From positions 410,335 to 474,334 of the forward strand of contig JAAOMT010000591.1 in the NCBI GenBank assembly GCA_016748015.1: a DNA stretch of 64,000 nt, given 5' to 3'. The position numbers and the translations under genes were made by a program. Source of the stretch: Geosiphon pyriformis uo1 (taxonomy: Eukaryota; Fungi; Glomeromycota). This document shows, one piece after another, positions 10,223 through 63,806 of the stretch. Numbering within the stretch: position 1 is the stretch's first letter; each line of letters starts with the position of its first letter. The notes beneath the pieces are model-generated. The model saw only the letters and a program-made list of their open reading frames with translations, searched no databases and was not told the DNA's origin.

Positions 10223-13200
10223 TATTACAGATAAGGTTAATGAGACATTGTAGTAATATTTAGTGTTCTAAATTTAGATAATAAAAGCTTAAAAGTCTCT
10301 ATTTTAAATACTTAAAATAAGTTGTTTAATATTAGTCTTTGAAAGTTTTTTGCTAATTTTACTCATAAAGTTCTTTAGTTATAAGCACAAAAAAGTATTC
10401 AGCTATTTATAGTTTAAGTGTGTAAGCTATTTTTTTCAAGCTAGTTGAGTATAGTCACTAAAATCTAATAATGTCTTTTTACTCTTTTGGTAAGTTAACA
10501 AAATAATGTTAATATCTAATTCTAAAAAGAGCTTCCTTTTTTTACCAGACTATTACAAAGTCTATTTTTAGATAGTTAATTTTGCAATGTTGTCATTCCA
10601 CAAAAAAAAAAAAAGAAATAAAAGAAATTAGTATTGTTAATTACTGTAATCAAGAGCAATTGGTTTAAGTTGTTATTTGTTCAAGACATTTTATGCTAAG
10701 AACATCTGGCCAAGAACAAAAGTAAAAGAATAAATAATTTGGTTTAAATATAAGATTCAGAAATTATAAATAAATGATTTTTGGTTTTAATAATTTCTTT
10801 ATTTAAGATAATGTAAATATATAAATAAGATAGATCTAATAGATATAAGTAAAAAATATATTTTTTATCTGATTATTTTTTGTTGTTCTTTTTTTACTGT
10901 TAAATTTACTTATTTTTATATATATTTTTAGTTTTACAAACTTGTTTTTTGATTGTTTGTTATTATTAGTTATTGTTTGTTATTTCTGTTGTTGCTTTGT
11001 TTTTTTATACTGTAACTAATTATTTTATATTATAGTTAATTATTTTGTGTTATTTTGTATTATTACATTTTTTTATGTTATTATGTTTTTTAATCACGTT
11101 TTTTTAATATCTTTTGAATTTGTTTTTTCTACTTAGGTAATATTATCTTTTTTTTTAGAATTGAGCTTTTGCAAAATTATATATATTTGCAAAAATTGTT
11201 TTTTAGTATAGTGTTCAATTATTGTATTAAGTATTGCTTTTTGTAGATCTTTAAACTGTGTATTAGTTATTTGTTTTATACTGTTAACTATAATAGTTTT
11301 TAGTATATTATCTAACAGTATAGCTGAACAGTATTTAAAGACTGTATACAATTAGTAGTTGCTTTATAGTGTAATGTTAAGTTGTTTTTTTTTATGAATT
11401 CTTTTACTTATTTGATAACTTCTTTGTTGAAGATTTGTCTGTTGAGATTTTTATATAGTGTCTTTAATTTTAGTTGTCCACCAATTTTAAAAAACCAGTA
11501 GACTAGTAAAAGTTTTTTTTTCTATTCTCTAATATTTTTTGGTGTCTATTCTTTTATGTTAAGTAGTTTAATTTTCTAAAAAAAACCTTGTTGGATTTTT
11601 TTTTATATTAGAGACCACATATCTTTTTTTTTAAATTATTTATAGGAATAAAAACACTTAATTTAGTTGAACTTTTGCCCATTGTTACCAGACAAAATTA
11701 GAGATATTATTTAGCATGAAATTATCTTTATAATTCCTATCATTAATTAGCATATATTATTATTCAAATTATCACTTATTACATTAGCAAAATGTCCAAA
11801 ATTATCATTTAATTAATAACCCAATTTGCACATAACATAAATGTAACCTAATTACAATGATCAATCATGCAATACCCCGAACTATGTAACATTCAAAAAG
11901 TTTGCTGAAATTTGTAGAAATTTGCCAAAATAATTAATAGTTTACTGAAATATCTAATAGTTTGCAGAAATAACTTGTAGTTTGCCAAAATATATCTTTA
12001 GTTCAGCGAAATTGTAGAAAAGAGCAAAGTTCAAGTTCATAAAATAGTGTTATGACAAGTTGTATAAAAAAAAAGCTTCTCTCTTCGAGAAAATGTATCT
12101 TACTTTAGATTTATCACTTAGAACTATTCCTACACACACAAAAAGAAATAAATATCAAATAATTCAAAAAACCAAATTTTTTAAATATTACACTTGGAAA
12201 ATCTCCAAAACCCAACTAACATTTCGAAATTAATTAGCTACCAATTTCAGTAAACTGTTAGTGACTTCAGGCCTGGATAGAAAACACTTCTCTTGATAAA
12301 ATTCTATTTCTTTTACATTTCTTTTATTTTTTTTTTCTTTTCTTATTACAATCATTAAGGTAGTCTACAGACAAGATTCCTGTAGAAGAGTTGACTTTCA
12401 CAGTAAAGTAACTACACATTTTTAGTAAGCTTCCAGACGAGCAATTCCTGGGAAAGAGTTGACATTTACTACAACGTAACTACACAAGTAACTGGCATGG
12501 AATTGGCTATTCCACTTATAAACCCAGCAGTTCAAATTATAGGAGATAATTTGAAGATAAATTCAGTTATCGGAGGTTCAAACACTTCCTATAGTTGTGA
12601 ATTAACAGCATTACAATGAACATACAAGAGCTAAGAAGAGACCAAAAACCTCTGATAATACCATTCTTTTTTTGCATAAATTTCTGTATCATATTTTTTT
12701 ATTATTAATTGTAATTTCTATTGGTATTGTGAATTGTTGAATGGTTTTAAATAATTGTTTTAAAAGTTTTAAAATTTGATTTAAAAAGTCTATGTTGAAA
12801 GTTCTATTGTCTTTTTTTTTGCTGTTTTGGTTTTTATATATACTTAAATTTGTGATTTAATTTATTATTAATAAACTATATTTTAATAACAATAATTGGT
12901 TTTAGATCTTGTGATATATTTTTTGGTCTGATTAATATAATTTGTATTTCTAGTTAAGATACAAATAATGATGACTCTTGATTGATATGATAAATTTTTA
13001 GTCGATTTTTATGCACTATTTTTTTTAAAATTTTGTTCTCTGATTATAATTTGTATACTTTATTGCCTAAAACTTTGTGTATATAAAATGATTCATCTCA
13101 TTTTGGATCAAATTTTCAATTTTATTGTTTTTTAGCTTTAGTATGATGTAATAATACTCTGTTTTTAATCTTAAATTTAGCTAGTTGGTTGGATAAGCAA

Positions 13201-13460: not shown

Positions 13461-13479
13461 AGGTATGAATAAAAAAACA

Positions 13480-15065
13480 ATAAAATAAAAAATATAATTA
13501 TAAATAAAATAGACTATTTTATATATATAGACTTTTAAAAAATAAATATATAAGTTAAAACTAAATAATAAAGTTTTAAAAAAAGTTATACATAATAATA
13601 AACCAATTTTAAATTTTTAATTTCACAAATTAGTATATAATTTTTTTTAATTAATTCAAAAAATAATTCTTAAAACTTAAAATTTTTATATTTTTTTAGA
13701 AAAATAAAAAAAATTATTAAAATTATTTCTTAACTTATTTATAATAATTATTAAAAATTAAATTAATTATATTTAAAAAAATTTATTATAACTTTAATAA
13801 TAAATTTACAAAATTATTACTTTTATAAAAGAAACACAAAAAATTATTTTGAAATTTACTTATTAAAAATTTTAAAACAAGCTTTAAAAAAAACTTATTA
13901 TTTATTTGTATTAATATTTCTCCAATATTACAATTTAATAAAAACTTTAATTGTATTTTAATAAACAAAACAATAAATATACACTAATTTATAAATATTT
14001 TATATAAAAAAAGCATTTTATAAAAAAAACTGGAATTTAAAACAACAAATTTTATTTTAAAAGTTATTTAAAAGCAAATACATAACAAATTCAAAATAAT
14101 AATTAGATTAACATTTATTACAAAATTAAAGTTACTTAAAGACTTTATAATCTATTTTATATTTGTAAAAATATTTTATAAAATTTAGTTTTATAATTTT
14201 TAAAGATTTAATATATTAAAAAGCTTATAAAATTAAAATTTTAACAATTTTTAAACCAAATTGTTTTAATAATCTTAGATAATTATTTAGAATTACAGAT
14301 AATATTTGGATTTTAATAAAATTTAGTTTTAAAAAAAAGATTATATTATTAATAAAAATTTTAAATTATTTATTATTACAAAATTATTCTTATAATTTTT
14401 AACATATATTATTATTTTAATTTATTATTTATTATTTTATTAAATTATTAAATATTATTATTTAATTAATAATTTAATTTGTACAATATACAAATATAAC
14501 TAATTGTAATAATAAAATTATGTAATACTTTAAACTATATAATATTCAAAAATTTGCCAAAATATTTAAAAATTTAATAAAAAATTTAATAGTTTATTAA
14601 AATAATTAATGATTTATAAAAATAATTTGTAATTTGCCAAAATATATTTTTAATTTACCAAAATATTAACAAAAAAAAGTGCTAAATTATAAAATAATAT
14701 TACAATAAATTGTATAAAAAAAAGCTTTTTTTTTAAAAAAAAAAAATTTTTAAAATTTTAATTTAGAATAACCAATTAATTACTGCAAATTAATTCAAAT
14801 AAATTTATGTTTTGAAAACCAATAAATTTTTTTATAATTATTATTGTTTAAAACTCAAAATTTTAATTAATATTTTAAAATTAATTAATTACCAATTTTA
14901 ATAATTACTTAATTAATTTTAAATTTAAATTAAAAACATTTTTTTATTTTTTATATTTAAGTAGCTTATAATTAAGACATTTTGTAAAAATATTGATTTT
15001 TATAGCAAAATAACTATATATTATTAAAAAGTTTACAAACAAGAATTTTTGTAAAAAAGTTGAAT
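13480..15065 (+). mobile_element. Highly eroded family-B 3' end: ORF3 remnant, PPT and LTR starting ~14344
   Basis: 14311-14360 atttggattttaataaaatttagttttaaaaaaaagattatattatt is the eroded form of gcttggactttgatggagctcagtcttgaggaggagattatgttacc (reverse complement of ~62815-62860). Downstream sequence aligns with LTR B. Confidence 0.8.
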
Positions 15066-17899
15066 TAGTTTTAATAATTATGTTAAAGAAAATAAAATAA
15101 ATTGTTTTTAAAATCTAATTTTAAATTAATAAAATCATATAAAAATTAAAACACAGTTTTAATGTAATATAATTTTTGTAATAATATTAAATACTAAAAT
15201 AAAAAACTATTTATTCAAAAAAATTTAATAAATAATTTTTTTTTTAAATATTATTAAAACCAATAATGTTTTTTAAAAATAAAAAAAAGTATTCTAGTTT
15301 TTATCTTATTAATTTAATTATTATAATTAAATATTTTATTTTTAAAACTGGTAATAATTAATTAAAATTTATATTAAACAATATAATTAAATATTAATTC
15401 AAGTTAAATTTAACCAATATATCATTGTTATTAATCTTTAAAACAAAAAAAAACTTAATATTTTAAAAACAAAAATAACAAAAAAAAAATTAATAGCAGT
15501 TTAATAACCAGTTTGTAATTAAAAACTCTGAAACTCTTTACATAATAATAATTATATTAAGACTATTTTTAACATGTTACTTTGAAAAAACTTTTACTTA
15601 AAACTAAAAATAGTGTTTTTTTTAACAACTAAAAGCTGCTTAGTTTTATTATTGTTTTAATAGTGGTCAAAAAATTGTAAAAGAATTGTTTTTTTTTGCT
15701 TTTTTATAATTTTTATAAATTCAATAATCATATTCAAACTTGAAAAACTGTGCCCCAACCACAATATGCTTTAATAACTCGCTACACTGCTCTGACGATT
15801 GTTTAATTTTAATAGATACACCCAAGGCTTTCAGAGCTTCCATGCACCTCTTGAACCCCAAAATAAACTTTGAAATCATAAAGACTACATTGGTCAAGAT
15901 GTTAACTTATAATGCATGGAAATGCTATTGTTTTTAGAAGAATAGTGGAATACCGAATTCTCTAACTTTTTATTTCAGAAAGAGCAACAAAAAAAGCTTT
16001 AGCTTTTATACCAGCAAACAGCAAACATATGAAGACAGCTCCTTCATTTCACTAGAATCAATTCTCTTTTCAGCCCAGTTCTCAAAACGTTTCGCACTTT
16101 TTTTCGGTGGATGTGACTCCAGCCAGCCAGCCAGCATGATCAATTATTTTAGACGACGAGAAATCCTTGGTTTGAGAGTTTGTGCTTTCTTCAAGTTGCC
16201 TGCATAGTTACTGAGATTTTCTGTCATCAGCCCAGCGGAATTCTCAGTTTTGCCAATGTGCTCGTAGTTGCTAATATACTACCGAGAAGGTTAGGATTCT
16301 TTAATATGCGCATACATAATGCACGTATGTTATTACCCTTAAATTCCAGAATAGTTACAATGATTGGTGACTCCAAAAGTTTTTATCATGGCTATGTACA
16401 AAGGATTGTACTTGACATATGATATTATAATCACCAGCGACGAAGCCGGCTCCATAGTGGTGGGGTTGATGATGTCTCATATACAAAAACCTACGGGCGT
16501 GATCCCTTATGTATTGTGTGAAATAGATCTCCCCACATTTCGACGACTCCTAACTTGGTGCCCCTAGCACAAACACCCCTTCCACTTTTTGTCCTAACGA
16601 ACGATCCGCCAGTTTCGGGCGTCGGGACAAAATCCGTTAAGCAGCGGGCACGAATGCACCTCCCACTGTTGAAGACGGTAATACTTCATTTGTTACAACA
16701 TACATTATGTAAACAGGTAGCTATAAACAGCACATACGGATAATACTCGGGATTCGCCAATTAGATTCATGATGAAATGGAGAAGCAATGACCCAAAGGT
16801 CGATTCCTGGACACTATGCAACAACGGATGAGTGACCTCCTTGCTCTTGGGAAATACCCATAGAGCTGCTGGTGGCTTTTATCACCACGAAAACAAGTCA
16901 TCTGTTTTATCGACAGGTGAGTAGAGATCCCCGTATCACGTGGGAAGTTCCTTATTTTCTTCTCTAAACGATAAATATCTTCGCATGACCAAGTTTCCTG
17001 GCTTCATCTATCAGCGACGTTCAATTCGGCTCGGTCCTGGAAATTTCGGGCTTTTGGAACATCGTTCAATCCTGCTGTGAAATCGACTAGCACTTGATGT
17101 TTGATAAATTCTTGTCGCAATTTTCCCGTGTAAGTTAAGAAACATAATGATTTCCACTCAAAGGTGTCACTTGAGCGAAATAATCCACCGCATCGAGTCT
17201 TGTGTCATGGATGTTGTTTCCTGCAAACATGAACAGATTGGACGCTTTATTCAAACCATAGCAAAAGTTGAGAGTGTGAAAAAATCAAAATACAGGAAAT
17301 GGAGGAAACGGAGCATATTCTTACAAGCAAGAACGGAAACCAGGCAAATGAAGTGCGAAAAACGTCAAATAAAGGCAACAGGGACGAGCGAAGCAAATGG
17401 GGTGGTCGACGAAAGGAGCAAAAAACAGAATTACGTGCGTGTGTTGACCACACCGCATGATCACTTTGTCTGGTTTTGTTGTATGTCCCATAAATACAGG
17501 TTGTTCACTATTAGACTAATTTAAAACTTTGATTTCCTTGAATCCGTTAATGATTAAACTACATTGGAACTTTGACGTATACCGTAAATACCAAAATATT
17601 ATAAAATACAATTTTCTTGATCTTTTTCGCAATGGAGTGCAAGTTGAACCGATTTGTAAAATTTCCCAAACAAAAATATTATGTCTTGGTGCTTTTGAAC
17701 TGTATGAACATCGACGTTATCCCTGAGATACAACATTACAGAATGAATATATGGATTTGCACTTAATAGAGAAAAATGGCAAACGTAATAAAAACTTACT
17801 ATATTTTCCGTGCGCGCGTATTTTTTCCTCCATCCTTGAGCTACAAGATGTACTCTCTCTGTGTAATTTAACATATTTAATATGTTTATTTCTATAACT

Positions 17900-34351: not shown

Positions 34352-34559
34352 AGCGAAAACGGCAAAATTGTAAGGAGAATGGGGTAAATAAACTTTTTTT
34401 TGAATCAGGTACAGTGATTGATCCGGATGACGTTTGACAAATAATTTTATGCTTCTATGACGCAAAATTCGCTAATGTTTACAAAAAGAATTGTTAGGTT
34501 TTTGAGTTCCAATCACGAATGTAGAATTTTGACATGATATTTGTCTTAAAGTCAAATCA

Positions 34560-36887: not shown

Positions 36888-37588
36888 TGTTATGGTTAAA
36901 ACTTATATTTCTTATTAATTATCACATGTATTAGCCACTGATATTATATAAATTAGCCACTCTATTTTTAGTAAGTGATCATTGACCTGATCATTGACCT
37001 GATTATTGACCTAATTATTGACCTAGTCATTGATCTGATCATTGACTACTTTTAATAGCTATATAAGCGATGAATTTCTTAACTGTAAAAAAGCATGAAG
37101 AAATAAAGAAATCAAGAAAATCAAATAAATAAAAATAACAACTTTTATCTCAATTCTTCTCTTATCGCTAATTTCCCTTTCCCTACTTTTAAGTATCTGA
37201 ACATCTTAAAAGATAAAAGATTATTTGTTGGTTATTCTTTACCCTTTTCCTGAAATGTGTAATTGCAACATTTGAAGATTATTGAATAAAATGTAACTAA
37301 AAAGCACATCTGATACTTAATATTGAATTCTAAGAGTGCTGATGTGAAGCATAGAATTATACCAAGTGTGATCATTTGTTGACAGTACAGACTATTTCTC
37401 TACCTTCAGATTCCCCAGTTATCTTTGAAAAGTATAGTGACTGAAATATTTTATGAAACTAATCTTGCACATTGAATTCATACTTATTCAATTCGCTCTT
37501 TAAAGTTGAATTCCCTTTGATTCCTTTCATCACTCTACAATCCTGTTCTCTCTTGCTATCTGTTAGCTTGTTACTCCAATCCGTAACA
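36888..37588 (+). mobile_element. 5' LTR of gypsy family C
   Basis: TGTTATGG...CCGTAACA termini, followed by a PBS. Confidence 0.85.
36976..37047 (+). repeat. ~6 x 12-bp tandem repeat (TGATCATTGACC) in the U3 of LTR C
   Basis: Seen directly, just upstream of a TATA-like ctatataag. Confidence 0.85.
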
Positions 37589-41710: not shown

Positions 41711-42578
41711 TGTTACTCATAGAAATATAGGAATTATATTAGCATAATTATTAGCCAATCAGAAGTAAGCATAGTAAATATGGAATTCCAGGATTCCTCT
41801 TAGGAATTGCAGGATTCCAGGAATTTCAGGATTTCTGACAAGAAATTGCAGAATTCCAGAATTTCAGGATTTCTCTCAAAGGAATCGCAGGATTCCAAAA
41901 ATTCCAGGATTCCTGTCATAAAGAATTGAGGAATTGAGGAATCTCAATTATGTATATATAGCAGTAGTATTAGAAACAGAAAAGACAGAATTGATACTAC
42001 AGAATCCTTAGCTTAGAAACACAATCATCAAATAAATAATTATTTCATATCTCAACCCACTCTCTACTATCAACATGAAGTGTTGATAGTAATTGATACT
42101 TAACTATGCTGGGACAATAGCTCTTGATCATGGCTATTGACGGGATATTAATCTGCAAATTGTTTTGGCTTATTTCTTTTCTTTATTTATTTTTCTTTTA
42201 TTTTTTTTTCTTTATTTTATGTTTATTTGTTGTTGTATACTAATTGATTAAAAAGATTAAGCACTGAGTTATTGATATCAAGGATAGCCTAGTAAAAGAC
42301 CCAGAAATAAGGGTAGAATTTTATATATTATCAGATAGCTTACCAGAAGAGCACGACTGCCAGACTAAATCCGGCCACCATGCTGAGAAAAAAATTGGGA
42401 AAACTCTTGGGAAAATACATTTACTATTAACACTATTGAATCTCTATCCGTTATACAAAGAACTCCATCAAAACCTTAAGATACAACACCTTCAGATTAT
42501 TATCAACTGCTATTAGCTTTGAGCACCAAGTTATGGGTTTGTGAGTTAATTCAACAATAGAAATAATCACCTGTAACA
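41711..42578 (+). mobile_element. 5' LTR of gypsy family A, with GGAATTCCA/CAGGATTC-type repeats at 41782-41945
   Basis: TGTTACTC...CTGTAACA termini, followed by a PBS. Confidence 0.9.
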
Positions 42579-42580
42579 TT

Positions 42581-42597
42581 TGGTGCTCGCTGTGAGG
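42581..42597 (+). other. Primer-binding site of family A (TGGTGCTCGCTGTGAGG)
   Basis: 2 nt after the LTR end. Confidence 0.85.
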
Positions 42598-42640
42598 TAT
42601 AATCCTACAGAGAACCAGCACTGACAACACCAAACCAAAA

Positions 42641-45600: not shown

Positions 45601-48600
45601 GAGCGAACTGACTTCAAATTGGAAATGGGAAGAAGACAAAGAAAATAAAGGGAAGGGAAAAAAAAAAGAGACCACTCAAATCACCACCACTTATAACACC
45701 TACACTACACCACAATGATCTATCTATCGTCAACCCAAACTTATATACATTGATTGTGGCAAAAAATTGTCGTCAATGAGTGCATGCTGTGAGGATAATG
45801 AGAAATATTCAATGGCAACTAGGTTCTATTGCCACCCATGTGTTCTTGAACGCTTTAGAAGACCAAAACGAGTAGGGAAATGGGACAATCAGCCATGCTT
45901 AGCTTGTGGAAAGACTCTCTTAGACAAAGGAATGTGGCATGACATTCCTGGACATAGAAGAATATGCAACATATCATGTCAATACACAATTCTAATAAGT
46001 GACTGGGTAAGGAAAGGAATCCCAATAGAAGCAGTCTAGAGAAGAGCCGTACAGCGACTGGACAGTTGCCCACATGATGATGACAAAATTTGGCAAATGG
46101 CACTTGCAAAAATCAAAGGGGTGATGTCAGAAGAGATAAAAACGATCAAAGACAACACCCCAGAATCTTTAGAGCTTAACTGGGATACAGAACCCATCAT
46201 AAACCTCCTGGATCTAGAACAATTCTACGAACACTATCAAAAATTAGCACCCACAAGGGAAGAACAAGAACAATGGTTAGAACAGTTGAATACTTGACTA
46301 TATCAACACTGCCTAATTTCCTGTGACTTCCAGTATTGCAATGAGTGTAACCTCATTTACAATCCACCACCACGTATGATCTACACGATCCCAGAAAAAG
46401 AAGAACCAATCAGCAGCTGCGCATCAAAATTAGAATTGCCGATCAATCGCGATTCAAACTCCGACAATGACGATGACAACAACGGTTCAAGCTCCATTCA
46501 AAATGGCAATGACAATGACAATGATTTTAACTCAAATACAAACTCCGATTTAAACTATGAACAATATATTGTATTACCAGATCTCTCCAAGGAACAAGAG
46601 TTGAAATGATATAGTGACAATGGGGAAGGTATTATGCCAGAACGTGCACATGATACTGATATAGGGTTTGATCTAAGATATTCAGGAAAAAATGCCATCA
46701 AATTGGAACCACATTCATGCACCTGCATTGATCTGAAAATAGCACTAGAAATTCCGGCAACAATCATGGTTCAATTAGCATCTAGGAATAATTTAGCAAA
46801 AAGAGGGATTAATATAAAAGGAGGAATAATTGATGTGGGATATGTAGGAAATATTATTGCTATGCTACAAAATGACTCAGAAAAGGCCTATGTAATAGAA
46901 CTCAATGAAAAGATAGCACAGGCAATATTCCTGCCTCTGGTTAGAATAGTACAGTTAGTATCAATAGAAAAGAGGGAGAAATTAGGAATAACAGCAAGAG
47001 GAATACAGAGATTCGGATCCACAGGTAGAATAGATGTACCAATTAACATGACAGAGGAAAAAATTGTTGACCAAGGAGAAATTATCTCAACTGGTCAAGC
47101 TATTTCTATTCCACTATATAGCCAGTACATGTTAGCAATAGAAAGAAAGGAAAAGGAGCAAGAACAGATGTTTGAAGTGGAAGCAACCCTTTGTGAATTG
47201 GGAGAGATTGGGTTGATCAATCTCCACATACCAGCCAAAAGCTATAGCAGCATAAAAATTCCCATCTACAATAATACTGGCAATGTCATCAGCATACCAG
47301 AAAGAACCACCATTGGATATTTAACCACAGAAATAGAAGACCAACCACCAAATCCCATTCCAGACTTTCCACAACTTTGTGGATATGTTGACATCACATC
47401 ACAAACAATCTATGGACAAGACAAATGTTATTTGCTCCAACCAGAACAATTGGAACAAATGAACATGGGAAACTTAGATCCACTCCAATGTATGCAGCTC
47501 AAGATGTTACTCAACAATTTCAATGACATTTTTGCCAGCAAAAATGAATTTGGCCGAACTGACATCATCCAGCATCAGATCAAGACTGGAGATGCAATGC
47601 CAATCAAACAAAGAGCATACAGAGTGCCGCCAGCCAGCCACAAGATTATTCATCAAGAGATAAACAGAATGCTTGACAACGGGCTAATTCAACTATCAAT
47701 GAGTCTATGGTCGTCACCAGTGGTACTCGTCCATAAGAAAAATGGAAAAATCCAGTTTTGTGTAGACTACAGAAAACTCAATAGTGTAACTCGTGGAGAC
47801 AGTTATCCAACTTCACAAATACAGGAATTATTCGATGCTTTCGGTGGGAACAAATGGTTCTCCACATTAGATTTGGACAGTGGTTACTGGCAAGTAGCCA
47901 TGAATCCAGCTGACAAAGAGAAGACGGCATTTACTACTAGAGAAGAGAATTTCGAATTTGAAGTAATACCATTCGGCTTAACCAATGCCCCAGCGACTTT
48001 CCAACAGCTAATGGAAATTGTTTATATGGGTTTATTGTGGAAATCAGTAGTTGTATACTTGGACAACACCAATGTATTCTTAAAGACATTTGATGATCAT
48101 CTTCATCATCTTCAACAAGTGTTTGAAAGACTAAGAAGAGCAGGACTGAAGCTAAATGCAACAAAGTGCTTCTTTGGCAAGACGAAACTCAAATTCTTGG
48201 GACACATAGTCAGCAAAGACAGTATCAAAATGGATCCAGAGAAAATAGAGATAGTAAAGAACTTTCCAGTACTGACCAATATAACAGAACTGAAATCATT
48301 CTTGGAATTTGCCAGCTACTATCATTGTTTTATCAAGAACTTTTCTAAGATAGCGCAGCCACTCAATCAACTACAAAACAAAAATGTGAAATATGAATGG
48401 ACAGAAAGTCAACAAGAAGCTTTTGATATTCTGAGGAAAAAGCTCATTCAAGCTCCAGTGCTGATCTATCCAGATTACAGCAAACCATTCATCATCACCA
48501 CTGATGCATCCGGCCAAGCATTGGGAGCAGTATTATCTCAGAGAGAACTGGACAGCAGAGAACATCCAATAGCATATGCCAGCAGAGGTTTAACACCAGC

Positions 48601-50804: not shown

Positions 50805-50858
50805 TCCATCAAAAGAATATATAAAGACATGGTAGATACAACAGGAAATATCAGAAAA

Positions 50859-51183
50859 ATGGAAATTACAGACAACATTCACTTACTAGCACAACAACTC
50901 TTTCAATTAATCCAACACCAGAAAATGGAGATTACAATCAATCAACAAACTATTCAATATCAAGATACTAGAAAGACATTGCAACCCAGAACACAGAAGA
51001 AAACTGAAAATACAGTAGACTAAATCATTGTGAAAGTAAAATTAGCAATAAAAGAATCGACAAAAAAGTCACTATATCAAGAGTTGACTAAAGAAACTTG
51101 GAATTGGTGGATACAACAATTTCCACAAAACTATTGTTATTTTTACTTGGGACAACACGTAAATATCCAGAATCTATATATGA
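50859..51183 (+). pseudogene. Family A accessory ORF3 (N-terminal part), cut by an LTR B insertion
   Basis: MEITDNIHLLAQQLFQLIQHQKMEITINQQTIQY...YCYFYLGQHV aligns with family B ORF3. Confidence 0.7.
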
Positions 51184-53629
51184 TGTTACCAGTAGAATTT
51201 TAGCTATTAATTAGCATGAAAATTACCCTTATAATTCATATAATTTATTAGTATATTAATATCATTTCAAATTATCATTTATTATTTAATCAATTATCAC
51301 ATATTACAATTCAATTAAAATAATCTAATTAGTATAACAGAAAGTAGAATGATCAAATTACACAATACTCTGAACTTTATAACATTCAAAAATTCGCCAA
51401 AATTTACAGAAATTCGCCGAAATTATGAATAGTTCACCCAAATTAATGAATAGTTCAGCGAAATAACTTGTAGTTCATCAAAATGTATCTTTAGTTTGCT
51501 GAAATTTGAGCAAAAAGAAAAAGTGCAAGTTCATAGACTAGTACTACAACAAGTTGTATAAAAGAAGAGCTTTTCTCTTCTGGAAAATATATCTTACTTT
51601 AGATTTATCTCTTAAAACTGTTTCTATACACACAAAAAGAAATAAATATCAAATAATTCGAAAAACCAAATTCTTTAATTATTGTACTTGGAAAAACCCC
51701 CAAAAACCCAACTAACATTNNNNNNNNNNNNNNNNNNNNNNNNNNNNNNNNNNNNNNNNNNNNNNNNNNNNNNNNNNNNNNNNNNNNNNNNNNNNNNNNN
51801 NNNNNNNNNNNNNNNNNNNNNNNNNNNNNNNNNNNNNNNNNNNNNNNNNNNNNNNNNNNNNNNNNNNNNNNNNNNNNNNNNNNNNNNNNNNNNNNNNNNN
51901 NNNNNNNNNNNNNNNNNNNNNNNNNNNNNNNNNNNNNNNNNNNACCTGAACAGTGAAACACTTGCTACCTACTTTCAAGAACTTAATTTTAATATTATTA
52001 AGCATTGTGAAGAAAAATACCCAGTACAGTCTAAATACTTTTTTGACTTTGAATCAGAGACAAAAACAAGCAATAAAGGCAAACAAAGATTGAAACAATA
52101 CTCAAGAACCACTTCAAACACTCCAACACTACAAAAGACAACTGCCAAACACTTGCAAACACCTGAACAAGGAACCAGTGTCAAATTACCGCTTTCTATT
52201 ACACCATTTCCAATTTCACTTGTTCAACCACAAACACCAAGTTCACCACTTAGCCATTTCTCCAGACCAGAAGATTTTCAGTCACCTAAAAATCCTACTC
52301 AACAGCAGAAACCAATATCAACAAGTGCCAATATCATTGATTACTTACAAGAAAACAAAAGTAATCACTCAGAAAGCTTGGAAAGTAAAGAAACTGAATC
52401 AAAACCAGAAGAAATTACAGAAAATGAGGAAGAAATGGCAACTGCTTACATTGCAAAAATCCCAGAATTCACTGGTGAAGACAATGATACCAGTCCTCAA
52501 GAATGGCTTGACAAAGTTCAAAAAGCAGGAGACGCAAATGGTTGGATTGCAGCAAGAATGCTCAAAGCAATTCCCTACTTTCTCCAAGGAACAGCAGGAG
52601 AATAGTTTGAAAATTTAGAAGAACCATTCGAAAACTGACAAGCATTCAAAGATGCTTTTCTACAACAATTCACCGACAACAATACCTCTATCACTCTCAG
52701 AAACTGCTTTTGCAATATCAAACAAGAAACATCTGAATCTGTTATGACCTATCTTGGAAGATTTAACAAACTTCTCAGACGAATCTGACAATTGAAAACC
52801 AATAACTACTATTCTGATGCTCAAATCTTAGATCAGTTTATAGCAAGATTAAAAGACAAATTGATTAAGAAAGTCCGTCCACATGCTCCAACAGATTTAG
52901 CAACTGCTATTAGACATGCAAAGAGCTATGAAATGGCAATGAAAGAAGCAAATCACACCAAGCTTGTAAACCTTGCAATTGGAGAAACCAGCTCAGCAGC
53001 TGAAGAAAAGATAGACCAACTCGCAAAGAAAGTTAAAAGCTATTTTAAAAACCAACAACAACAGCAGCAACAACCACAAAAATATTAATCACCACAATGA
53101 TGCAACCAAAACAATTTTGGATTAACATCCAACAACCAATCTCAAAATTGTCATTATTGTGGAATTCCAGGACACTGGAAATGAGATTGTGGGAAATTGC
53201 AAAGAGACCAACAAAACAGAAGTAATCAACATTACTCTTCACCACAACAATCCTATTACCAATTTCCACCACCAACCTATTATTCACCAAGATCACAAAA
53301 TCAAAACTACTATCCACCAGCTCCACAATCAATGCAGCAACAATATCAGCAATCTTTACCAATTCAGCCATATCAGACACTACCCACTCAACAATATCAA
53401 GTACCAACAAGAAGATTGGTTCAACATAACCAATTCACACACCAAAATCAATTGCAGAATAACCACAACAGAATCAATCCAAATAGCCAGTTGGTTCCCC
53501 GAAATTCAGGCCAGCAAAGACCCAATCACTATCACACTCAACCCAGTTATCTTACAATACCAGAGAAATCGGATTTTCAACAAACTGCACTTTCTGAAGA
53601 TGAAGTTACAGTGCTAAGATTAAACCCAT
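51184..53629 (+). mobile_element. Family B element (+): 5' LTR from 51184 (runs into a gap) and gag, cut at 53630 by a second B insertion
   Basis: TGTTACCAG start; gag IPEFTGEDNDTSPQEWLDKVQKAGDANGW, CHYCGIPGHW. Confidence 0.88.
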
Positions 53630-56600
53630 TGTTACCGGAGGTTTTTGGTCTCTTTTCTTAAATGTTGGTAATGTTAATTTGCTGTGAATTCACGTTTTCA
53701 GGAAGTAGTTGAACCTCCAATAACTGAATTTATCTTCAAATTATCTTCTATAATTTGAACTGCTGGGCTTATAAGTGGAATGGCCAATTCCTTGCCAGTT
53801 ACTTTATGTAGTTACGTTGTAGTAAACGTCAACTCTTTCCCAGGAATTGCTCGTCTGGAAGCTCACTAAAAATGTGTAGTTACTTTGCTGTGAAAGTCAA
53901 CTCTTCTACAGGAATCTCGTCTGTAGGCTATCCTAATAATTGTAATAAAAAAAATAAAAAAAAATAAAAAAAATGTAAAAGAAATAGAATTTTGTCAAGA
54001 GAAACGTTTTCTATCCAGGCCTGGAGTCACTAACAGTTTACTGAAATTGGTAGCTAATCAATTTCGAANNNNNNNNNNNNNNNNNNNNNNNNNNNNNNNN
54101 NNNNNNNNNNNNNNNNNNNNNNNNNNNNNNNNNNNNNNNNNNNNNNNNNNNNNNNNNNNNNNNNNNNNNNNNNNNNNNNNNNNNNNNNNNNNNNNNNNNN
54201 NNNNNNNNNNNNNNNNNNNNNNNNNNNNNNNNNNNNNNNNNNNNNNNNNNNNNNNNNNNNNNNNNNNNNNNNNNNNNNNNNNNNNNNNNNNNNNNNNNNN
54301 NNNNNNNNNNNNNNNNNNNNNNNNNNNNNNNNNNNNNNNNNNNNNNNNNNNNNNNNNNNNNNNNNNNNNNNNNNNNNNNNNNNNNNNNNNNNNNNNNNNN
54401 NNNNNNNNNNNNNNNNNNNNNNNNNNNNNNNNNNNNNNNNNNNNNNNNNNNNNNNNNNNNNNNNNNNNNNNNNNNNNNNNNNNNNNNNNNNNNNNNNNNN
54501 NNNNNNNNNNNNNNNNNNNNNNNNNNNNNNNNNNNNNNNNNNNNNNNNNNNNNNNNNNNNNNNNNNNNNNNNNNNNNNNNNNNNNNNNNNNNNNNNNNNN
54601 NNNNNNNNNNNNNNNNNNNNNNNNNNNNNNNNNNNNNNNNNNNNNNNNNNNNNNNNNNNNNNNNNNNNNNNNNNNNNNNNNNNNNNNNNNNNNNNNNNNN
54701 NNNNNNNNNNNNNNNNNNNNNNNNNNNNNNNNNNNNNNNNNNNNNNNNNNNNNNNNNNNNNNNNNNNNNNNNNNNNNNNNNNNNNNNNNNNNNNNNNNNN
54801 NNNNNNNNNNNNTTCAAGGCTAACATTAATTTTTGGGATATTTGTTGAATATTTCGGGGAATAATCATGATAAAATTGACTAATTATGAAAAGAGAAAAT
54901 AAAGAAAATTATTTTTGGATATGGGGTTTTTATTTGTTTTTGGGTTTGAGTGTTTTGTAATTATTTACTATTTTTGTCTTTGTGTTTTTAGTAGAGAATT
55001 ATTGTAAAATTTAAGTGTTCAAGTTTGGTTGTTGTTCTATTATAATTATTGGTTCTAAATTTCAGGAAATATCTTCAGGATTAATTAAAGGAGAATGTAT
55101 ACCAATTTGTGGAATTAATGGTTCAGGATTGTTTCTGGAATGATAGTATTTCAGTCTGTCTCCATGTGCAACTTTTGCTAATATTTTGTTATCAAGTCTT
55201 AACTTATATGATCCATTGTCTAGAATTTCATGAATATAAAATAGTCCATCCCATTTGTTTTCAAATTTCCCACTCCATTGTTTTTCAGCCTTAGTTCTGT
55301 GTAAGAGAACTTTATTTCCAACTTTAAATTCGTTGGTAATAGATGGTAATTTGTTGTCATATCTTTCTTTTTGTTAAGCTTGGGAATGTTCAATATAAGC
55401 TGCTGCTATTTTTCTTTTTCCTTCCAGTGTACTAAGAAGAGTGTAGGCTCTTCTTTGGAATGTCTCTTGAAAGTTTTTTTCATTGATTGGTTGCACTGGG
55501 TATATTTCCACTGTGAAATTAATTGGTAATGTTGCTGTTTTTCCATAAGTAAGATCAAATGGTGTGTGTTTCGTAGTATCTTGTTTTAGTGTTCTGTATG
55601 CTAGTAACACTGATGGAATAAAGATATCTCATTCCTGTTCAAAGTTTGTTGAGACTTTGGCTAAAGATTCACACAATGTTCTGTTAAAATGTTTTACAAG
55701 TCCATTTGTTTGAGGGTGATAAGGTAATGATAGAGGTCTTTTGACATTGAACTGTTTACAAATTTCTTGTATCAAGTTGTTCACAAAATGTGTTTCTTGA
55801 TCAGATAAGAGTTCAATTGGACATCCATGTCTACAGATAATGTCTTCATAGATGAATTTTGCTACTGATTTTGCATCTGCTTTTTGGATGGCTCTAGCTT
55901 CAGGCCATTTGGTAAGATAATCCACTGCAACTGCAATATAATAATTTCCTTGGGTTGTGATAGGTAATGGTCTGATTAAATCAATTCCAACTCTGTCAAA
56001 AGGTTGTCCAACTTTGATTGGATTTAAAGGTTCTGTGGGGTGAGTTCCTTCTCTTCTTTGGCAGTTATCACAAGATTCTACATATTGTCGAATGTTTTTT
56101 TACATGTAAGGCCAAAAATAATGTTCAAGGGTTCTTTGAATTGTTCCTTCTTTTCCCAAGTGTGCTGAAGACAGATCTGTGTGCATGTTGTATAAAATTG
56201 TTTCTTTTTCATTCTCTTGTACTAATCTGAATGGCTGGTTTGGTTTTCTGTGATTTTTATAATAAATTTTGTTCTGGTGTATAAAATATTGTTTTGATTG
56301 GTGTTGTAAGTGGTGTTTTTTACTGGGAGACCAGTTTTCTGGCATGATAAGGGTTTCCAAATAATTTTTAAGATTGCTGTAGTTTCTGGATCTATTTTTG
56401 TTTGGTTATTTTGTTGGTAAGTTGGTAAGTTGTGGTGGAATTGTTGTTGGTACTAATCTTGTCTCATTCTTGAGAGGCTATCAACATTGGTATGTAGTTT
56501 TCCTGGTTTGTGGTGTACAATATATCTGTAGTCTACTAGGAAGTCATTCCATCAAGACTGTTTGGCACTTTGTTCAGTTTTCTTTTTATTGAGCCATTTG

Positions 56601-59600
56601 AAGCCAATGTTGTCCATTATTATGTCAAATTCTTTTCCATTTTTCAGATATTGTTGAAAATGTTTAAGAGCCCAAATAACTGCAGCAGCTTCTAATTCAG
56701 TTGAGCCATATTTGAGTTCTGTTGGCTTGAGTGTTCTGCTGGCATAGGCAATAACTTGTTCTTGGCCATTTTCATTTAATTGTGATAAGATAGCACCAAA
56801 TGCTATGTGTGAGGCATCAGTGGCTAATTGGAATCGTTTGTTGAAGTCTGGATAAGCAAGAACTGGGGCTGTTGTCAATTTTGTTTTGAGAATTTCAAAA
56901 GCTTTNNNNNNNNNNNNNNNNNNNNATAACTGCAGCAGCTTCTAATTCAGTTGAGCCATATTTGAGTTCTGTTGGCTTGAGTGTTCTGCTGGCATAGGCA
57001 ATAACTTGTTCTTGGCCATTTTCATTTAATTGTGATAAGATAGCACCAAATGCTATGTGTGAGGCATCAGTGGCTAATTGGAATCGTTTGTTGAAGTCTG
57101 GATAAGCAAGAACTGGGGCTGTTGTCAATTTTGTTTTGAGAATTTCAAAAGCTTTTTGTTGTTTTTCAGTCCATTTGTATGGTACATTTTTGTTGGTAAG
57201 ATAATTGAGTGGTTTGGCAATTTCTGAGAATCCTTTTATAAATTTTCAATAGTAAGAGGCTAATCCCACAAATCCTCTTAGTTCTGTAGTATTTCTGGGA
57301 GTTTGAAAGTTTTTGACAGCATTGATTGTTTCTGGATTTGGTTTGATTCCATCTTTACTAACTATGTGTCCAAGAAAGATTAAACTTGTTTTTCCAAAGT
57401 GACATTTCTCAATATTTAACTTTAATTCTGCTTTCCATAATCGTTAAAAAACTTCTTGCAGGTAAATGAAATAGGCTTCAAAGCTTGGTGAGTATACATC
57501 AGTATCATCAAGATAAACAACTACTGATTGCCACAAGAGCCCTTCATAGACAACATCCATAAGTTGCTGAAATGTTGCTGGTGCATTGCAGAGTCCAAAA
57601 GGCATAACATTAAACTCATAATTTCTTCCTTAAGTGGTGAATGCTGTTTTGGGTCCATTTCGACTTGCCAGTATCCACTTTCCAGGTCTAAAGTTGAAAA
57701 GAACTTGGCTTTTCCTAGAGCATCTAGCATGTCATCAATTCTTGGAAGAAGGTAGGCATCTCCAATTGTAACACTATTCAGTTGTCTATAATCAACACAG
57801 AATCTAATTTTTCCGTTTTTCTTTTTAACCAAAACTATTGATGAGGCCCAAGGACTTCTTGATGGTTGAATCAATCCGTTATTGAGCATTCTTTGGACTT
57901 CTTTTCTGATAAATTGGTGGCTGGCAGGTGGCACTTGATAAGCTTGTTGATGTTTTGGTAGAGCATCTCCTGTATGGATCTAATGTTGAACAATGTCTGT
58001 TTTTCCTAAGTTATTGTTGTCTTTTGCAAATATATCTGCAAATTCAGCTATCAATTGTTTTAATTGTCTTTGTTGTTGAGGTTCTAAGGGACCCATATTG
58101 ATTCGAGAGAGTTTTTCTTCCAACAAGTGGTAGTTTTCAGTAGTGGGAATGATATTTGGATTTGGGAGTAGAGTGTGCTTTACAATTTCGATGAAATTAG
58201 AGACAATCTGAGGGTTTTCATCTTGAAAGATATTGCTGTGTATGATTTTAATTTTTAATTTGTTTAATAAAACAATAGGATAATTATTGGGGTTGTAGAA
58301 TGTAACTCGAAATTTTTTCATTCTTTTGGGAATATAAACGTTTGGAATTGATATTTCATGTTTCAAACAGATTTGTTCATTGAATTCAAAGATTTGTTGG
58401 GTAGTGGTGGGTTTTGAGCAAGTGTAAATTTCGTGATGTTTTCTAAAAGGTGAAATGGTAATTGGCTGAGGAAGTTGAAGAATCTGGTGAGATTCATTTT
58501 GTGTATTAAGAACTATGTTTACTGAAACTGTAAATCGTCCAGTTGAACCAAAACTTTGAATTCCTCTTTCACTCTTTCCCAATTGTTCTCTGCTGTTTAC
58601 TGATTGTAAACTCGAAATGTTGATTAAGGGTAAGTAAATTGCTTGAGCAATTTTTTCAGCATGTTCAATTTTGAATGGTTTGTCTGTCTCATTCTGTAAC
58701 ATGATGGTAATGTCTCCAGTGTATCCTGCATCTATAACTCCTCTTCTAATATTGATTCTTTTGCTTGCCAATGATGATCTGGAGGCAATTTGAATCATTG
58801 CTCCTGCTGGAATTTCAAGAGCAATTTTAAGATTGATTTTTGTCAAAAACTTTGGNNNNNNNNNNNNNNNNNNNNNNNNNNNNNNNNNNNNNNNNNNNNN
58901 NNNNNNNNNNNNNNNNNNNNNNNNNNNNNNNNNNNNNNNNNNNNNNNNNNNNNNNNNNNNNNNNNNNNNNNNNNNNNNNNNNNNNNNNNNNNNNNNNNNN
59001 NNNNNNNNNNNNNNNNNNNNNNNNNNNNNNNNNNNNNNNNNNNNNNNNNNNNNNNNNNNNNNNNNNNNNNNNNNNNNNNNNNNNNNNNNNNNNNNNNNNN
59101 NNNNNNNNNNNNNNNNNNNNNNNNNNNNNNNNNNNNNNNNNNNNNNNNNNNNNNNNNNNNNNNNNNNNNNNNNNNNNNNNNNNNNNNNNNNNNNNNNNNN
59201 NNNNNNNNNNNNNNNNNNNNNNNNNNNNNNNNNNNNNNNNNNNNNNNNNNNNNNNNNNNNNNNNNNNNNNNNNNNNNNNNNNNNNNNNNNNNNNNNNNNN
59301 NNNNNNNNNNNNNNNNNNNNNNNNNNNNNNNNNNNNNNNNNNNNNNNNNNNNNNNNNNNNNNNNNNNNNNNNNNNNNNNNNNNNNNNNNNNNNNNNNNNN
59401 NNNNNNNNNNNNNNNNNNNNNNNNNNNNNNNNNNNNNNNNNNNNNNNNNNNNNNNNNNNNNNNNNNNNNNNNNNNNNNNNNNNNNNNNNNNNNNNNNNNN
59501 NNNNNNNNNNNNNNNNNNNNNNNNNNNNNNNNNNNNNNNNNNNNNNNNNNNNNNNNNNNNNNNNNNNNNNNNNNNNNNNNNNNNNNNNNNNNNNNNNNNN

Positions 59601-62600
59601 NNNNNNNNNNNNNNNNNNNNNNNNNNNNNNNNNNNNNNNNNNNNNNNNNNNNNNNNNNNNNNNNNNNNNNNNNNNNNNNNNNNNNNNNNNNNNNNNNNNN
59701 NNNNNNNNNNNNNNNNNNNNNNNNNNNNNNNNNNNACTGCTGCATTACTAAGCAGAAATGGTGATTCATTTGCCTCAAATTCAAATGGAAATATATCTGA
59801 CAGATTAGCATTTTGGGCAATTTGAGCTGAGGGAATGGTGTGGTTGAAAGAGTTTGATCTTGGTGCTGCAATTTCATCTTCAGAAAGTGCAGTTTGTTGA
59901 AAATCCGATTCCTCTGGTATTGTAAGATAACTGGGTTGAGTGTGATAGTGATTGGGTCTTTGCTGGCCCAAATTTCGGAAAACCAACTGGTTATTTGAAT
60001 TGATTCTGTTGTGGTTATTCTGCAATTGATTTTGGGGTGTGAATTGGTTATGTTGAACCAATCTTCTTGCTGGTACTTGATATTGTTGAGTGGGTGGTGT
60101 CTGATATGGCTGAATTGGTAAAGGTTGCTGATATTGTTGCTGCATTAATTGTGGAGCTGGTGGATAGTAACTGTTTTGATTTTGTGGTCTTGGTGAATAA
60201 TAAGTTGGTGGTGGAGATTGGTAATAGGATTGTTGTGGTGAAGAGTAATGTTGATTACTTCTGTTTTGTTGGTCTCTTTGCAATTTCCCACAATCTCATT
60301 TCCAGTGTCCTGGAATTCCACAATAATGACAATTTTGAGATTGGTTGTTGGATGTTAATCCAAAATTGTTTTGGTTGCATCATTGTGGTGATTAATATTT
60401 TTGTGGTTGTTGCTGCTGTTGTTGTTGGTTTTTAAAATAGCTTTTAACTTTCTTTGCGAGTTGGTCTATCTTTTCTTCAGCTGCTGAGCTGGTTTCTCCA
60501 ATTGCAAGGTTTACAAGCTTGGTGTGATTTGCTTCTTTCATTGCCATTTCATAGCTCTTTGCATGTCTAATAGCAGTTGCTAAATCTGTTGGAGCATGTG
60601 GACGGACTTTCTTAATCAATTTGTCTTTTAATCTTGCTATAAACTGATCTAAGATTTGAGCATCAGAATAGTAGTTATTGGTTTTCAATTGTCAGATTCG
60701 TCTGAGAAGTTTGTTAAATCTTCCAAGATAGGTCATAACAGATTCAGATGTTTCTTGTTTGATATTGCGAAAGTGGTTTCTGAGAGTGATAGAGGTATTG
60801 TTGTCAGTAAATTGTTGTAGAAAAGCATCTTTGAATGCTTGCCAGTTTTTAAATGGTTCTTCTAAATTTTTAAACCATTCTCCTGCTGTTCCTTGGAAAA
60901 AGTAGGGAATTGCTTTGAGCATTCTTGCTGCAATTCAACTATTTGTATCTCCTGCTTTTTGAACTTTGTTAAGCCATTCTTGGGGACTGGTATCATTGTC
61001 TTCACCAGTAAATTCTGGGATTTTTGCAATGTAAGCAGTTGCCATTTCTTCCTCATTTTCTGTAATTTCTTCTGGTTTTGATTCAGTTTCTTTACTTTCC
61101 AAGCTTTCTGAGTGATTACTTTCGTTTTCCTGTAAGTAATCAATAATATTGGCACTTGTTGATATTGGTTCCTGCTGTTGAATAGGATTTCTAGGTGACT
61201 GAAAATCTTCTGGTCTGGAGAAACGGCTAAGTGGTAAACTTGGTGTTTGTGGTTGAACAAGTGAAATTGGAAATGGTGTAATAGAAAGTGGNNNNNNNNN
61301 NNNNNNNNNNNNNNNNNNNNNNNNNNNNNNNNNNNNNNNNNNNNNNNNNNNNNNNNNNNNNNNNNNNNNNNNNNNNNNNNNNNNNNNNNNNNNNNNNNNN
61401 NNNNNNNNNNNNNNNNNNNNNNNNNNNNNNNNNNNNNNNNNNNNNNNNNNNNNNNNNNNNNNNNNNNNNNNNNNNNNNNNNNNNNNNNNNNNNNNNNNNN
61501 NNNNNNNNNNNNNNNNNNNNNNNNNNNNNNNNNNNNNNNNNNNNNNNNNNNNNNNNNNNNNNNNNNNNNNNNNNNNNNNNNNNNNNNNNNNNNNNNNNNN
61601 NNNNNNNNNNNNNNNNNNNNNNNNNNNNNNNNNNNNNNNNNNNNNNNNNNNNNNNNNNNNNNNNNNNNNNNNNNNNNNNNNNNNNNNNNNNNNNNNNNNN
61701 NNNNNNNNNNNNNNNNNNNNNNNNNNNNNNNNNNNNNNNNNNNNNNNNNNNNNNNNNNNNNNNNNNNNNNNNNNNNNNNNNNNNNNNNNNNNCTCTAGAG
61801 TTGCTGTGTCTGGTGTGGTTGCCACTTTGAATTTGTTGTTGTTGTGTTATTTCCATGGGAGAGCACCAAATGTTACCGGAGGTTTTTGGTCTCTTTTCTT
61901 AAATGTTGGTAATGTTGATTTGCTGTGAATTCACGTTTTCAGAAAGTAGTTGAACCTCCAATAACTGAATTTATCTTCAAATTATCTCTTATAATTTGAA
62001 CTGCTGGGCTTATAAGTGGAATGGCCAATTTCTTGCCAGTTACTTTATGTAGTTATATTGTAGTAAACATCAACTCTTTCCCAGGAATTGCTTGTCTGGA
62101 AGCTCACTAAAAATGTGTAGTTACTTTGCTGTGAAAGTCAACTCTTCTACAGGAATTTCATCTGTAGGCTATCCTAATGATTGTAATAAAAAAAATAAAA
62201 AAAAATAAAAAAAATGTAAAAGAAATAGAATTTTTTCAAGAGAAACGTTTTCTATCCAGGCCTGGAGTCACTAACAGTTTACTGAAATTGGTAGCTAATC
62301 AATTTCGAAATGTTAGTTGGGTTTTTGGGGGTTTTTCCAAGTACAATAATTAAAGAATTTGGTTTTTTCGAATTATTTGATATTTATTTCTTTTTGTGTG
62401 TATAGGAATGGTTTTAATAGATAAATCTAAAGTAAGATACATTTTCCAGAAGAGAAAAGTTCTTCTTTTATATAACTTGTTGTAGTACTAGTTTATAAAC
62501 TTGCATTTTTTCTCTTTGCCCAAATTCCAGCAAACTAAAGATACATTTTGATGAACTACAAGTTATTTTGCTGAACTATTCATAATTTCGGCGAATTTCT

Positions 62601-62823
62601 GTAAATTTCGGCGAATTTTTGAATGTTACAAAGTTCAGAGTATTGTGTAATTTGATCATCTTACTTTTTGTTATACTAATTAGATTATTTTAATTGAATC
62701 GTGATATGTGATAATTAATTAAATAATAAATGATAATTTGAAATGATATTAATATACTAATGAATTATAGGAATTATAAGGGTAGTTTTATGCTAATTAA
62801 TAGCTAAAATTCTACTGGTAACA
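53630..62823 (-). mobile_element. Near full-length family B gypsy (-): LTR 62823-61871, PBS, gag, dUTPase (~58854-58530), RT, RNaseH, integrase (~56400-55050), ORF3 (from 54868), 3' LTR ending at 53630
   Basis: ASRSSLA..GVIDAGYTG..KIAQAI..RGIQSFGSTG; RFCVDYRQLN; LATDAS; DYLTKWPEA..YHPQTNGLV. Two homologous LTRs; several N gaps. Confidence 0.92.
61853..61868 (-). other. Primer-binding site of family B (TGGTGCTCTCCCATGG)
   Basis: 2 nt after the LTR end ggtaaca on the minus strand. Confidence 0.8.
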
Positions 62824-63806
62824 TAATCTCCTCCTCAAGACTGAGCTCCATCAAAGTCCAAGCACTATCTGTAATATTTAGATAGTGATCTAAAATGATT
62901 GAAGTAATCTGGTCTGAAAATTGTTGAAATTTCAGTTCTGTGAGTTTGCCAATGTATTGAACTTTCATTGATTGCAGTATTGGATTTTGTAGAACATTTT
63001 CACAAGTATTAAACAAATCATAGAGTCTAAAAGCTGCTCTAAGTTTATAGCGAGTGTTTGTTGGTCCAGCTGCTGTTTTGAATTCATTGTAGATTTGTTT
63101 TTGTATAACTTCAGGAGTAAGATTTGTTGCTTCAAGTTCCAGTTTTCGTTCATAAAGTGTTTTTCCAATTTGAAAGTATNNNNNNNNNNNNNNNNNNNNT
63201 AATCTGGTCTGAAAATTGTTGAAATTTCAGTTCTGTGAGTTTGCCAATGTATTGAACTTTCATTGATTGCAGTATTGGATTTTGTAGAACATTTTCACAA
63301 GTATTAAACAAATCATAGAGTCTAAAAGCTGCTCTAAGTTTATAGCGAGTGTTTGTTGGTCCAGCTGCTGTTTTGAATTCATTGTAGATTTGTTTTTGTA
63401 TAACTTCAGGAGTAAGATTTGTTGCTTCAAGTTCCAGTTTTCGTTCATAAAGTGTTTTTCCAATTTGAAAGTATCTATAGATAGAAGTGTGTTCATTGTT
63501 CTGTTCATTAAGAAGTAGTAGTAGTTTTTGTTGCATTGTAGCATTTGGTGGAATGTCAATTGGGGCAATTAGCAGATTTTCTTCTAGTGCCTGCTTCAAA
63601 AGTCTTGGTAATTTATTCTCAAAGTGCCTTCTTGTTTTTCTTCTATAGGGGTGATAGTTCTGTAAATAATTTGCTACTGGGGCTGTGGTTTTTTTCTGAA
63701 TGTATTTAATTTGACTTCTATTAATCGTTATAGATAAGTCAGGGAGTGTTTTCAAGGCTAACATTAATTTTTGGGATATTTGTTGAATATTTCGGGGAAT
63801 AATCAT
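62804..63806 (-). CDS. Family B accessory ORF3 (~235 aa after removing the gap duplication), function unknown, stop codon inside the LTR
   Basis: ATG-initiated open frame MIIPRNIQQ...YRYFQIGKTL...RLYDLFNTC...LSLEEEIMLPVEF*, downstream of the integrase end (EPIIII). Confidence 0.8.
62827..62836 (-). other. Polypurine tract GAGGAGGAGA, 3 nt before the LTR
   Basis: ...cttGAGGAGGAGAtta|TGTTACCAG on the minus strand. Confidence 0.8.

Follow-up and report, generated by a model that had tools for sequence, protein, structure and literature searches.

Pseudo-triloops are a protein-recognition motif of RNA, known from the apical loop of HBV epsilon, which is an encapsidation signal, from the HIV-1 TAR loop and from the simian foamy virus R-U5 hairpin (PMC1636360). 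The IRE offers a related geometry, in which a lower stem, a single 5' bulge and a 5-bp upper stem carry a hexaloop with an N1-N5 (N14-N18) pair (PMC2896125, PMC12230718). Ahead of the PBS, the leaders of retroviruses, Ty1 and Ty3 combine several hairpins in a row with a palindrome and a helix at the U5 end, in elements with a CCHC Gag (PMC5035971, PMC4974528). Palindromes have been proposed as Ty1 dimer sites, Ty3 packaging is described as dependent on UTRs or POL (PMC4974528), and a 2016 review called the RNA structure of Ty3 uncharacterised (PMC5035971/PMC4974528). Retrozymes and Penelope hammerheads are further cases of a small structured RNA within the terminal repeats of a retroelement. 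The locus described here belongs to Geosiphon pyriformis, in whose lineage LTR elements make up about 41% of the genome (PMC11952901). Two tandem units that follow the TATA box in one of its LTRs are supported as an RNA motif that is both structured and conserved.

The window, that is, the whole stretch of 64,000 nucleotides analysed, consists of nested and decayed Ty3/Gypsy elements among fungal genes. The motif is hosted by the 3' LTR of a minus-strand element, B1, which retains remains of Gag, dUTPase, RT and integrase and carries an additional gene, ORF3, after pol. TG...CA LTRs, a PBS, a PPT, gag and an RT located upstream of integrase were all found, as in Ty3/Gypsy. The gag-pol region of B1 (55100..61856, minus strand) encodes Gag, dUTPase, RT and integrase, interrupted by stops and assembly gaps. 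Its Gag contains a CCHC zinc knuckle (CX2CX4HX4C), and 101 out of 101 Gag matches were named Geosiphon pyriformis. A dUTPase is encoded between protease and RT in both Gypsy families of the window (46610-47030 and 57983-58855).

Only part of the B1 3' LTR is visible (53630..54068, minus strand, motif included), the remainder falling in an assembly gap. A complete family B LTR of about 950 nt, bounded by TG...CA, is located at 61871..62823 on the same strand. It contains a single TATA match (62474), a single AATAAA (62388) and a copy of the motif (62045-62171); a PPT (62828-62836) precedes it, and the PBS TGGTGCTC (61861-61868) and an ATG (61856) follow it. The spacing from TATA to AATAAA is 86 nt in family B, 84 nt in its sister subfamily B' and 78 nt in family A. 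Having a single AATAAA is unremarkable, as 305 of 1000 shuffles have one at most. In this complete LTR the motif lies downstream of the TATA box, as the first-pass annotation had proposed, and 215–345 nt past the sole AATAAA. If both signals are used as we infer, R would be short and U5 about 480 nt long, and the motif would therefore lie in U5. We thus place it probably in a U5 leader, the R/U5 border being drawn from consensus signals.

The same LTR has ORF3 and the PPT before it and the PBS and gag after it, which would fit either two tandem elements with a common LTR or repeats collapsed in the assembly. Its U3 (62560-62620) contains repeated AAATTCGCCGAAATT and TAGTTCA words whose copy number varies among LTRs, and these are likely enhancer repeats. 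CCAT flanks both ends of the solo LTR 11683-12659 (11679-11682 and 12660-12663) and also the LTR end at 53630 (53626-53629), while ATGA (51180-51183) precedes the LTR at 51184. Each of the three B/B' insertions lies within another Gypsy element, in two cases within an ORF3-like gene, and the similar 4-nt flanks hint at a target preference.

Both units were recovered on the minus strand exactly as first described, unit 1 at 53875-53926 and unit 2 at 53807-53860. Each consists of a hairpin (P1), an AAG linker, a second hairpin (P2) and an ACA tail. P1 of unit 1 (53906-53926) has 6 bp, an AC bulge, a possible GA/UC mini-stem and a 3-nt loop; in unit 2 (53838-53860) the apical loop is 2 nt longer. 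This insertion falls at the tip of P1 and is compatible with the AC bulge and mini-stem, a part of P1 that never covaries. P2 of unit 1 (53878-53902) comprises 4 bp, a bulged G, 5 bp and the hexaloop CACAGC, with a predicted C1-G5 pair, and P2 of unit 2 (53810-53834) carries the hexaloop UACUAC with a predicted U1-A5 pair. In predicted folds, P1 and P2 form independently in each unit. Folding stability is modest, with z-scores of -1.65 and -1.72 for the single units and -0.31 for the two jointly, and in an alternative fold within 1 kcal/mol the 3' strand of P1 of unit 2 pairs with CCCAG at 53763-53767. ARAGORN detected no tRNA or tmRNA genes in the window. The segments previously called invariant are indeed the same in both units, but the comparison is one of two units and a single duplication, and among genomic copies no stretch is more decayed than ACGAG (33% and 47% decay at its CpG).

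Evidence for the structure comes from the way in which the two units differ, as their covariation is greater than expected by chance. The stem pairing had been reported to be kept despite the different letters, and all 15 stem pairs are in fact retained. With the 2-nt loop insertion set aside, 10 of 52 columns distinguish the units: eight form four compensatory pairs, one gives a U·G wobble and one lies in the P2 loop. Three of the double changes were already part of the first-pass annotation. The fourth involves hexaloop positions 1 and 5 of P2, where C-G in CACAGC of unit 1 becomes U-A in UACUAC of unit 2; such a cross-loop pair is predicted to create a pseudo-triloop, as in the IRE, HIV TAR and HBV epsilon. 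In simulations with the stems alone, 15 out of 15 pairs were kept together with at least three double changes at frequencies of 0.7e-4 to 8e-4. With the loop pair included, 1.5 million random-placement trials under each of three transition biases gave 2, 6 and 15 cases in which all pairs were kept and four or more double changes occurred, counts that are optimistic because the cross-loop pair was added after inspection; for three or more double changes the counts were 65, 197 and 598. Sliding the pairing by 1–3 columns, as a control, gave no double changes. The single U·G wobble and the RNA z-scores slightly favour the element strand. This between-unit covariation is the record of one ancient duplication event. 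Additionally, the commonest non-CpG variant among the copies (34% of depth) affects 53892, the first loop position of unit 1; it replaces the cross-loop C-G by U·G and so preserves the pair. For the predicted N1-N5 pair, which would leave N6 extruded, the record consists of a compensatory change (C-G to U-A) and a wobble variant.

Further copies were confirmed where they had been indicated. A second, CpG-decayed copy of both units is located at 62045..62171 (minus strand), another at 12361..12487 (plus strand) in the solo LTR 11683-12659 of subfamily B', and a heavily eroded one at 14962..15072 (plus strand) in a B'-type LTR (14344-15232) located after an eroded ORF3. A covariance model run over the whole window retrieved eight units in four LTRs and nothing more below E=1. 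Six of 255 proteins read through the motif and thus show it little changed in other genomic copies.

The covariation that might have been expected across copies was not recovered: contigs from one DNA run showed none beyond C>T/G>A decay. In a comparison of the motif with 3,278 contigs, restricted to those at least 80% alike, the 27 variable places listed at 1% or more were all C>T or G>A, with CpG sites leading, in a list that under-reports places near the motif ends (some CpG variants are omitted). Nor does it extend across families, as families A and C lack the motif. C>T/G>A change has brought old element copies (3000-16000 and 34000-37000) down to 9-20% GC, and younger copies mutate mainly at CpG, a pattern of RIP-like or methylation-driven decay. 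Between B and B', counting transversions and gaps, the motif differs at 2 of 136 columns against 67 of 383 in U3 (P = 1e-7), whereas the rest of the post-TATA block differs at 14 of 405 (P = 0.38 against the motif). It is therefore the whole post-TATA block that is conserved, and not the motif alone; the block could have become common to B and B' through recombination.

The words GATAGC and CCAGA.GAGCA are common to the family A and B leaders without significance (208 of 1000 shuffles). Among viral contigs, a loose pattern gave 120 matches, none with P1 plus P2, and two stricter patterns gave none. Pattern scans yielded three unpaired matches in prokaryote genomes and four matches in metagenomes, the two best-scoring of which overlap bacterial-type ORFs; none of the four matches the window. 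The covariance-model search of these loci took in 100 of the 127, with scores inflated by pattern preselection. We consider the matches in the three public collections to be chance ones, with no homolog seen in them outside this element family.

The units are part of a longer structured region. The post-TATA block reads as a series of predicted structures on the minus strand: a 7-bp hairpin comes first, then a palindrome and a U-tract, next the two units, and after them a hairpin, another hairpin of 10 bp and a 12-bp helix. The 12-nt palindrome TCCAGGCCTGGA (54014..54025) is a candidate dimer initiation site, with a predicted homodimer energy of -26.3 kcal/mol compared to -3.0 for the monomer. 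The U-rich tract (53945..53975) lies just upstream of unit 1. Downstream of unit 2, the segment 53763..53804 can form GGAAT/ATTCC or UGGC/GCCA hairpins and includes CCCAG. The GGAAT/ATTCC hairpin that had been noticed here does exist (53777-53791), although a competing fold lies within 1 kcal/mol. It is followed by a perfect 10-bp hairpin (53735..53759) whose copies differ solely in the loop, and by a 12-bp helix (53713-53724 with 53631-53642, spanning 53631..53724), which closes the 3' end of the LTR beside the PBS in a U5-IR-like manner with a predicted pair probability of 0.99. The post-TATA region is free of ATG over 439 nt, as are 16 of 1000 dinucleotide shuffles, whereas U3 shows no such depletion; the 62 kb copy has two ATGs, both from CpG decay, and the B' copy has two (124 of 1000 shuffles). 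An ATG occurs a few bases past the PBS, and the Gag frame is open from about that point. Judged from its sequence, this layout reads as a structured 5' leader moved into U5. The likeness to retroviral and Ty1/Ty3 leaders lies in the hairpin row, the palindrome, the end helix and the CCHC Gag, the difference being that here these elements stand upstream of the PBS, within a very long U5.

In both families a long open frame begins right after the PBS (42596-43477 and 61846 onwards), upstream of the typical Gag capsid start. These frames have no in-frame ATG at their start, and family B has a conserved out-of-frame ATG after the PBS; a non-AUG start, a frameshift or splicing is possible. In family A (42519-42590), GAGCACCAA, situated some 55 nt upstream, can fold together with the U5 end and PBS into a long hairpin that covers the PBS and is U5-IR-like or suggestive of Tf1-like self-priming. 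For family B, no perfect complement of the PBS that would allow such self-priming was found within its LTR.

The structure of the units is well supported, and their function can be proposed from sequence. Our preferred reading, to which we give a little less than an even chance, is that they are protein landing sites, forming a Gag-bound packaging or leader signal. CCHC knuckles bind unpaired G, and the zinc knuckle of the element's own Gag would be the most probable partner, acting in genome selection and packaging. Transcription would start about 30 nt after the TATA box at 62474 and 3' ends would form near the single AATAAA at 62388, in which case the units would be present once per RNA, at its 5' end. 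Each unit would offer two bulged hairpins with unpaired G residues, one of them capped by a pseudo-triloop, and the two copies may allow cooperative binding beside the palindromic dimer site. The coding region opens no more than about 15 nt from the PBS, which would leave the ~480-nt U5 or gag itself to accommodate the signals that retroviruses place in the PBS-gag interval. The CCHC knuckle of Gag, the AUG-free leader and the pairing-preserving changes between units all speak for this reading, and the protein-binding or packaging role listed among the options of the first-pass annotation gains from the covarying, predicted cross-loop pair. Against it stand the presence of Gag without the motif in families A and C, the modest folding energy and the competing fold of P1 of unit 2. 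IRE-type geometry is also common by chance (36 sites in this AT-rich window, about half with an N1-N5 pair), and it is the covarying loop pair that supplies the evidence. Compared to the known pseudo-triloops, the units have loop letters NACWNC, a 5'-side bulge, a bulged G and a pairing that is predicted; here the pseudo-triloop is coupled to a second bulged hairpin, tandem-duplicated and located in a fungal Ty3/Gypsy element.

ORF3 is a second candidate partner encoded by the element. This gene of about 235 amino acids (62807..63806, minus strand), duplicated across an assembly gap, reads through the PPT and stops inside the LTR start (62807-62836). The best 120 of 200 matches are all named Geosiphon pyriformis, and distant homologs of about 27% identity were found in ENA/JGI assemblies; by sequence comparison ORF3 appears to be a small family of this fungus and a few metagenome assemblies. 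Even homologs with no more than 27% identity (P0147 and P0149) retain the peptide EL.LEE.IMLP, which can serve as a marker for related LTRs. An ORF3-based locus search of viral contigs found nothing, and no Pfam family was assigned, the best hint being a weak one to DUF1016_N (5 of 29 members, best E = 0.015). Two predicted folds reached pLDDT values of 47.7 (first model) and 64.5 (second model), for which Foldseek gave no match at E<=0.001; a VIA fold search returned generic helical matches (best Z 5.8) that neither assign nor exclude a fold.

That the units are a response element for ORF3, in the style of TAR/Tat or RxRE/Rex, controlling elongation, export or the translation of unspliced RNA, is in our view unlikely, though it is the leading competitor of the Gag reading. 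The motif is in the LTR downstream of the TATA box, its bulge and pseudo-triloop architecture is TAR-like, and a basic patch of ORF3, YHPYRRKTR, is retained in part by distant homologs. Motif and ORF3 also co-occur in B and in B', whose ORF3 is about 65% identical to that of family B. However, family A has a distant ORF3 homolog (50832-51176, E = 2e-4) and lacks the motif, which weakens the link between the two. Besides the weak family hint and generic fold matches, the units lie at least about 270 nt from the inferred start, unlike TAR. A circuit in the style of complex retroviruses, made of ORF3 and tandem pseudo-triloop units and arisen independently outside retroviruses, is accordingly a doubtful prospect.

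Binding of a host factor, or a conformational switch, acting on translation, splicing, export or 5' poly(A) suppression in a CTE- or IRES-like way, seems rather unlikely. It would suit the long AUG-free leader and the two folds within 1 kcal/mol, as well as the U-tract followed by YAG before unit 1, which gene models P0082 and P0100 use as an acceptor, although these models are themselves predictions. The IRE matches P2 in geometry, and CACAGC differs by a single letter from SIREs motif 2 (CAGAG-H), as UACUAC does from motif 9a (UAGUA-Y). Identity with the IRE fails, which counts against a host factor: both units have a G bulge instead of C8 and C instead of G at loop position 3, no motif of SIREs 3.0 Table 2 fits, Rfam gave no IRE match, and a CAGWGH-type loop is absent.

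We regard it as quite improbable that the units act as DNA, either as inverted half-sites for a transcription factor or as hairpins of minus-strand strong-stop cDNA, or that they are a neutral duplication with stems perfected by template switching. AGTTGAC/GTAACT are inverted half-sites, the cDNA strand folds about equally well as DNA (z -2.01 and -1.44), and the copies show neutral decay alone. Template switching at short inverted repeats is an alternative source of paired changes, but it accounts poorly for an isolated cross-loop pair or for changes spread over two distinct hairpins. Compensatory changes, for their part, are not required in double-stranded sites, the cDNA has a C·A mismatch in place of the G·U pair, and the block is kept between subfamilies.

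It is very improbable that the unit is a new small self-cleaving ribozyme, splitting the RNA pool into cut mRNA and uncut genome, since cleavage within U5 would detach R from the PBS. A cut between these two would abolish the first strand transfer, and thus break reverse transcription. We retain the idea at this low level because fungal viruses use 5'-UTR ribozymes for cap-independent translation (bioRxiv 10.1101/2024.05.16.594327). Tandem small structured units in a retroelement LTR also recall retrozymes, and CAGACGA is one letter from the hammerhead CUGANGA. The hammerhead consensus has this CUGANGA core, directly followed by stem II and then GAAA. No exact core occurs on either strand, no stem II follows CAGACGA at the downstream GAAs (0-1 pairs at 6 of 6 sites) and Rfam gave no match, so the hammerhead topology fails. 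P1 and P2 are the only helices of at least 5 bp shared by the units, with no common closing helix or pseudoknot. Twister-sister-like (lantern) ribozymes have a 5 x 6 nt internal loop between two stems and cleave at CA (PMC11620745), whereas the predicted interruptions here are 1- and 2-nt bulges. In contrast to retrozymes and Penelope hammerheads, the units have no hammerhead core or three-way junction, and the host element is autonomous in design (PBS, PPT, gag-pol).

The lack of a match to known ribozymes, already stated in the first-pass annotation, was borne out and extends to Rfam families. Rfam returned no gathering-level match in the window, none for the 136-nt motif and five weak, unrelated ones for 571 nt. 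Twister, pistol, HDV-like, hatchet and hairpin ribozymes had no Rfam match at E<=10 in either the 571 nt or the 136 nt, and their core words are absent from the element strand. Likenesses to U6 ACAGAGA, the SRP Alu, MLV GACG loops and H/ACA boxes are short word matches without Rfam support. The motif is also undescribed in the literature found on Geosiphon Gypsy/LTR elements or ribozymes and on fungal LTR ribozymes, a set that takes in few subscription journals.

We would file the units as a structured signal in the leader of an LTR retroelement whose fold is so far unlisted. Their known range is narrow, comprising one species and, within it, a single element family. The map of RNA signals in Ty3/Gypsy elements is still poor, and none was found described for Geosiphon pyriformis; at 52 nt, and with compensatory evidence already contained in its sequence, the unit lends itself readily to testing. 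If ORF3 binds the units, they would represent retrovirus-like RNA control in a fungal transposon. If Gag binds them, they would constitute a defined packaging signal inside the U5 of a fungal element.
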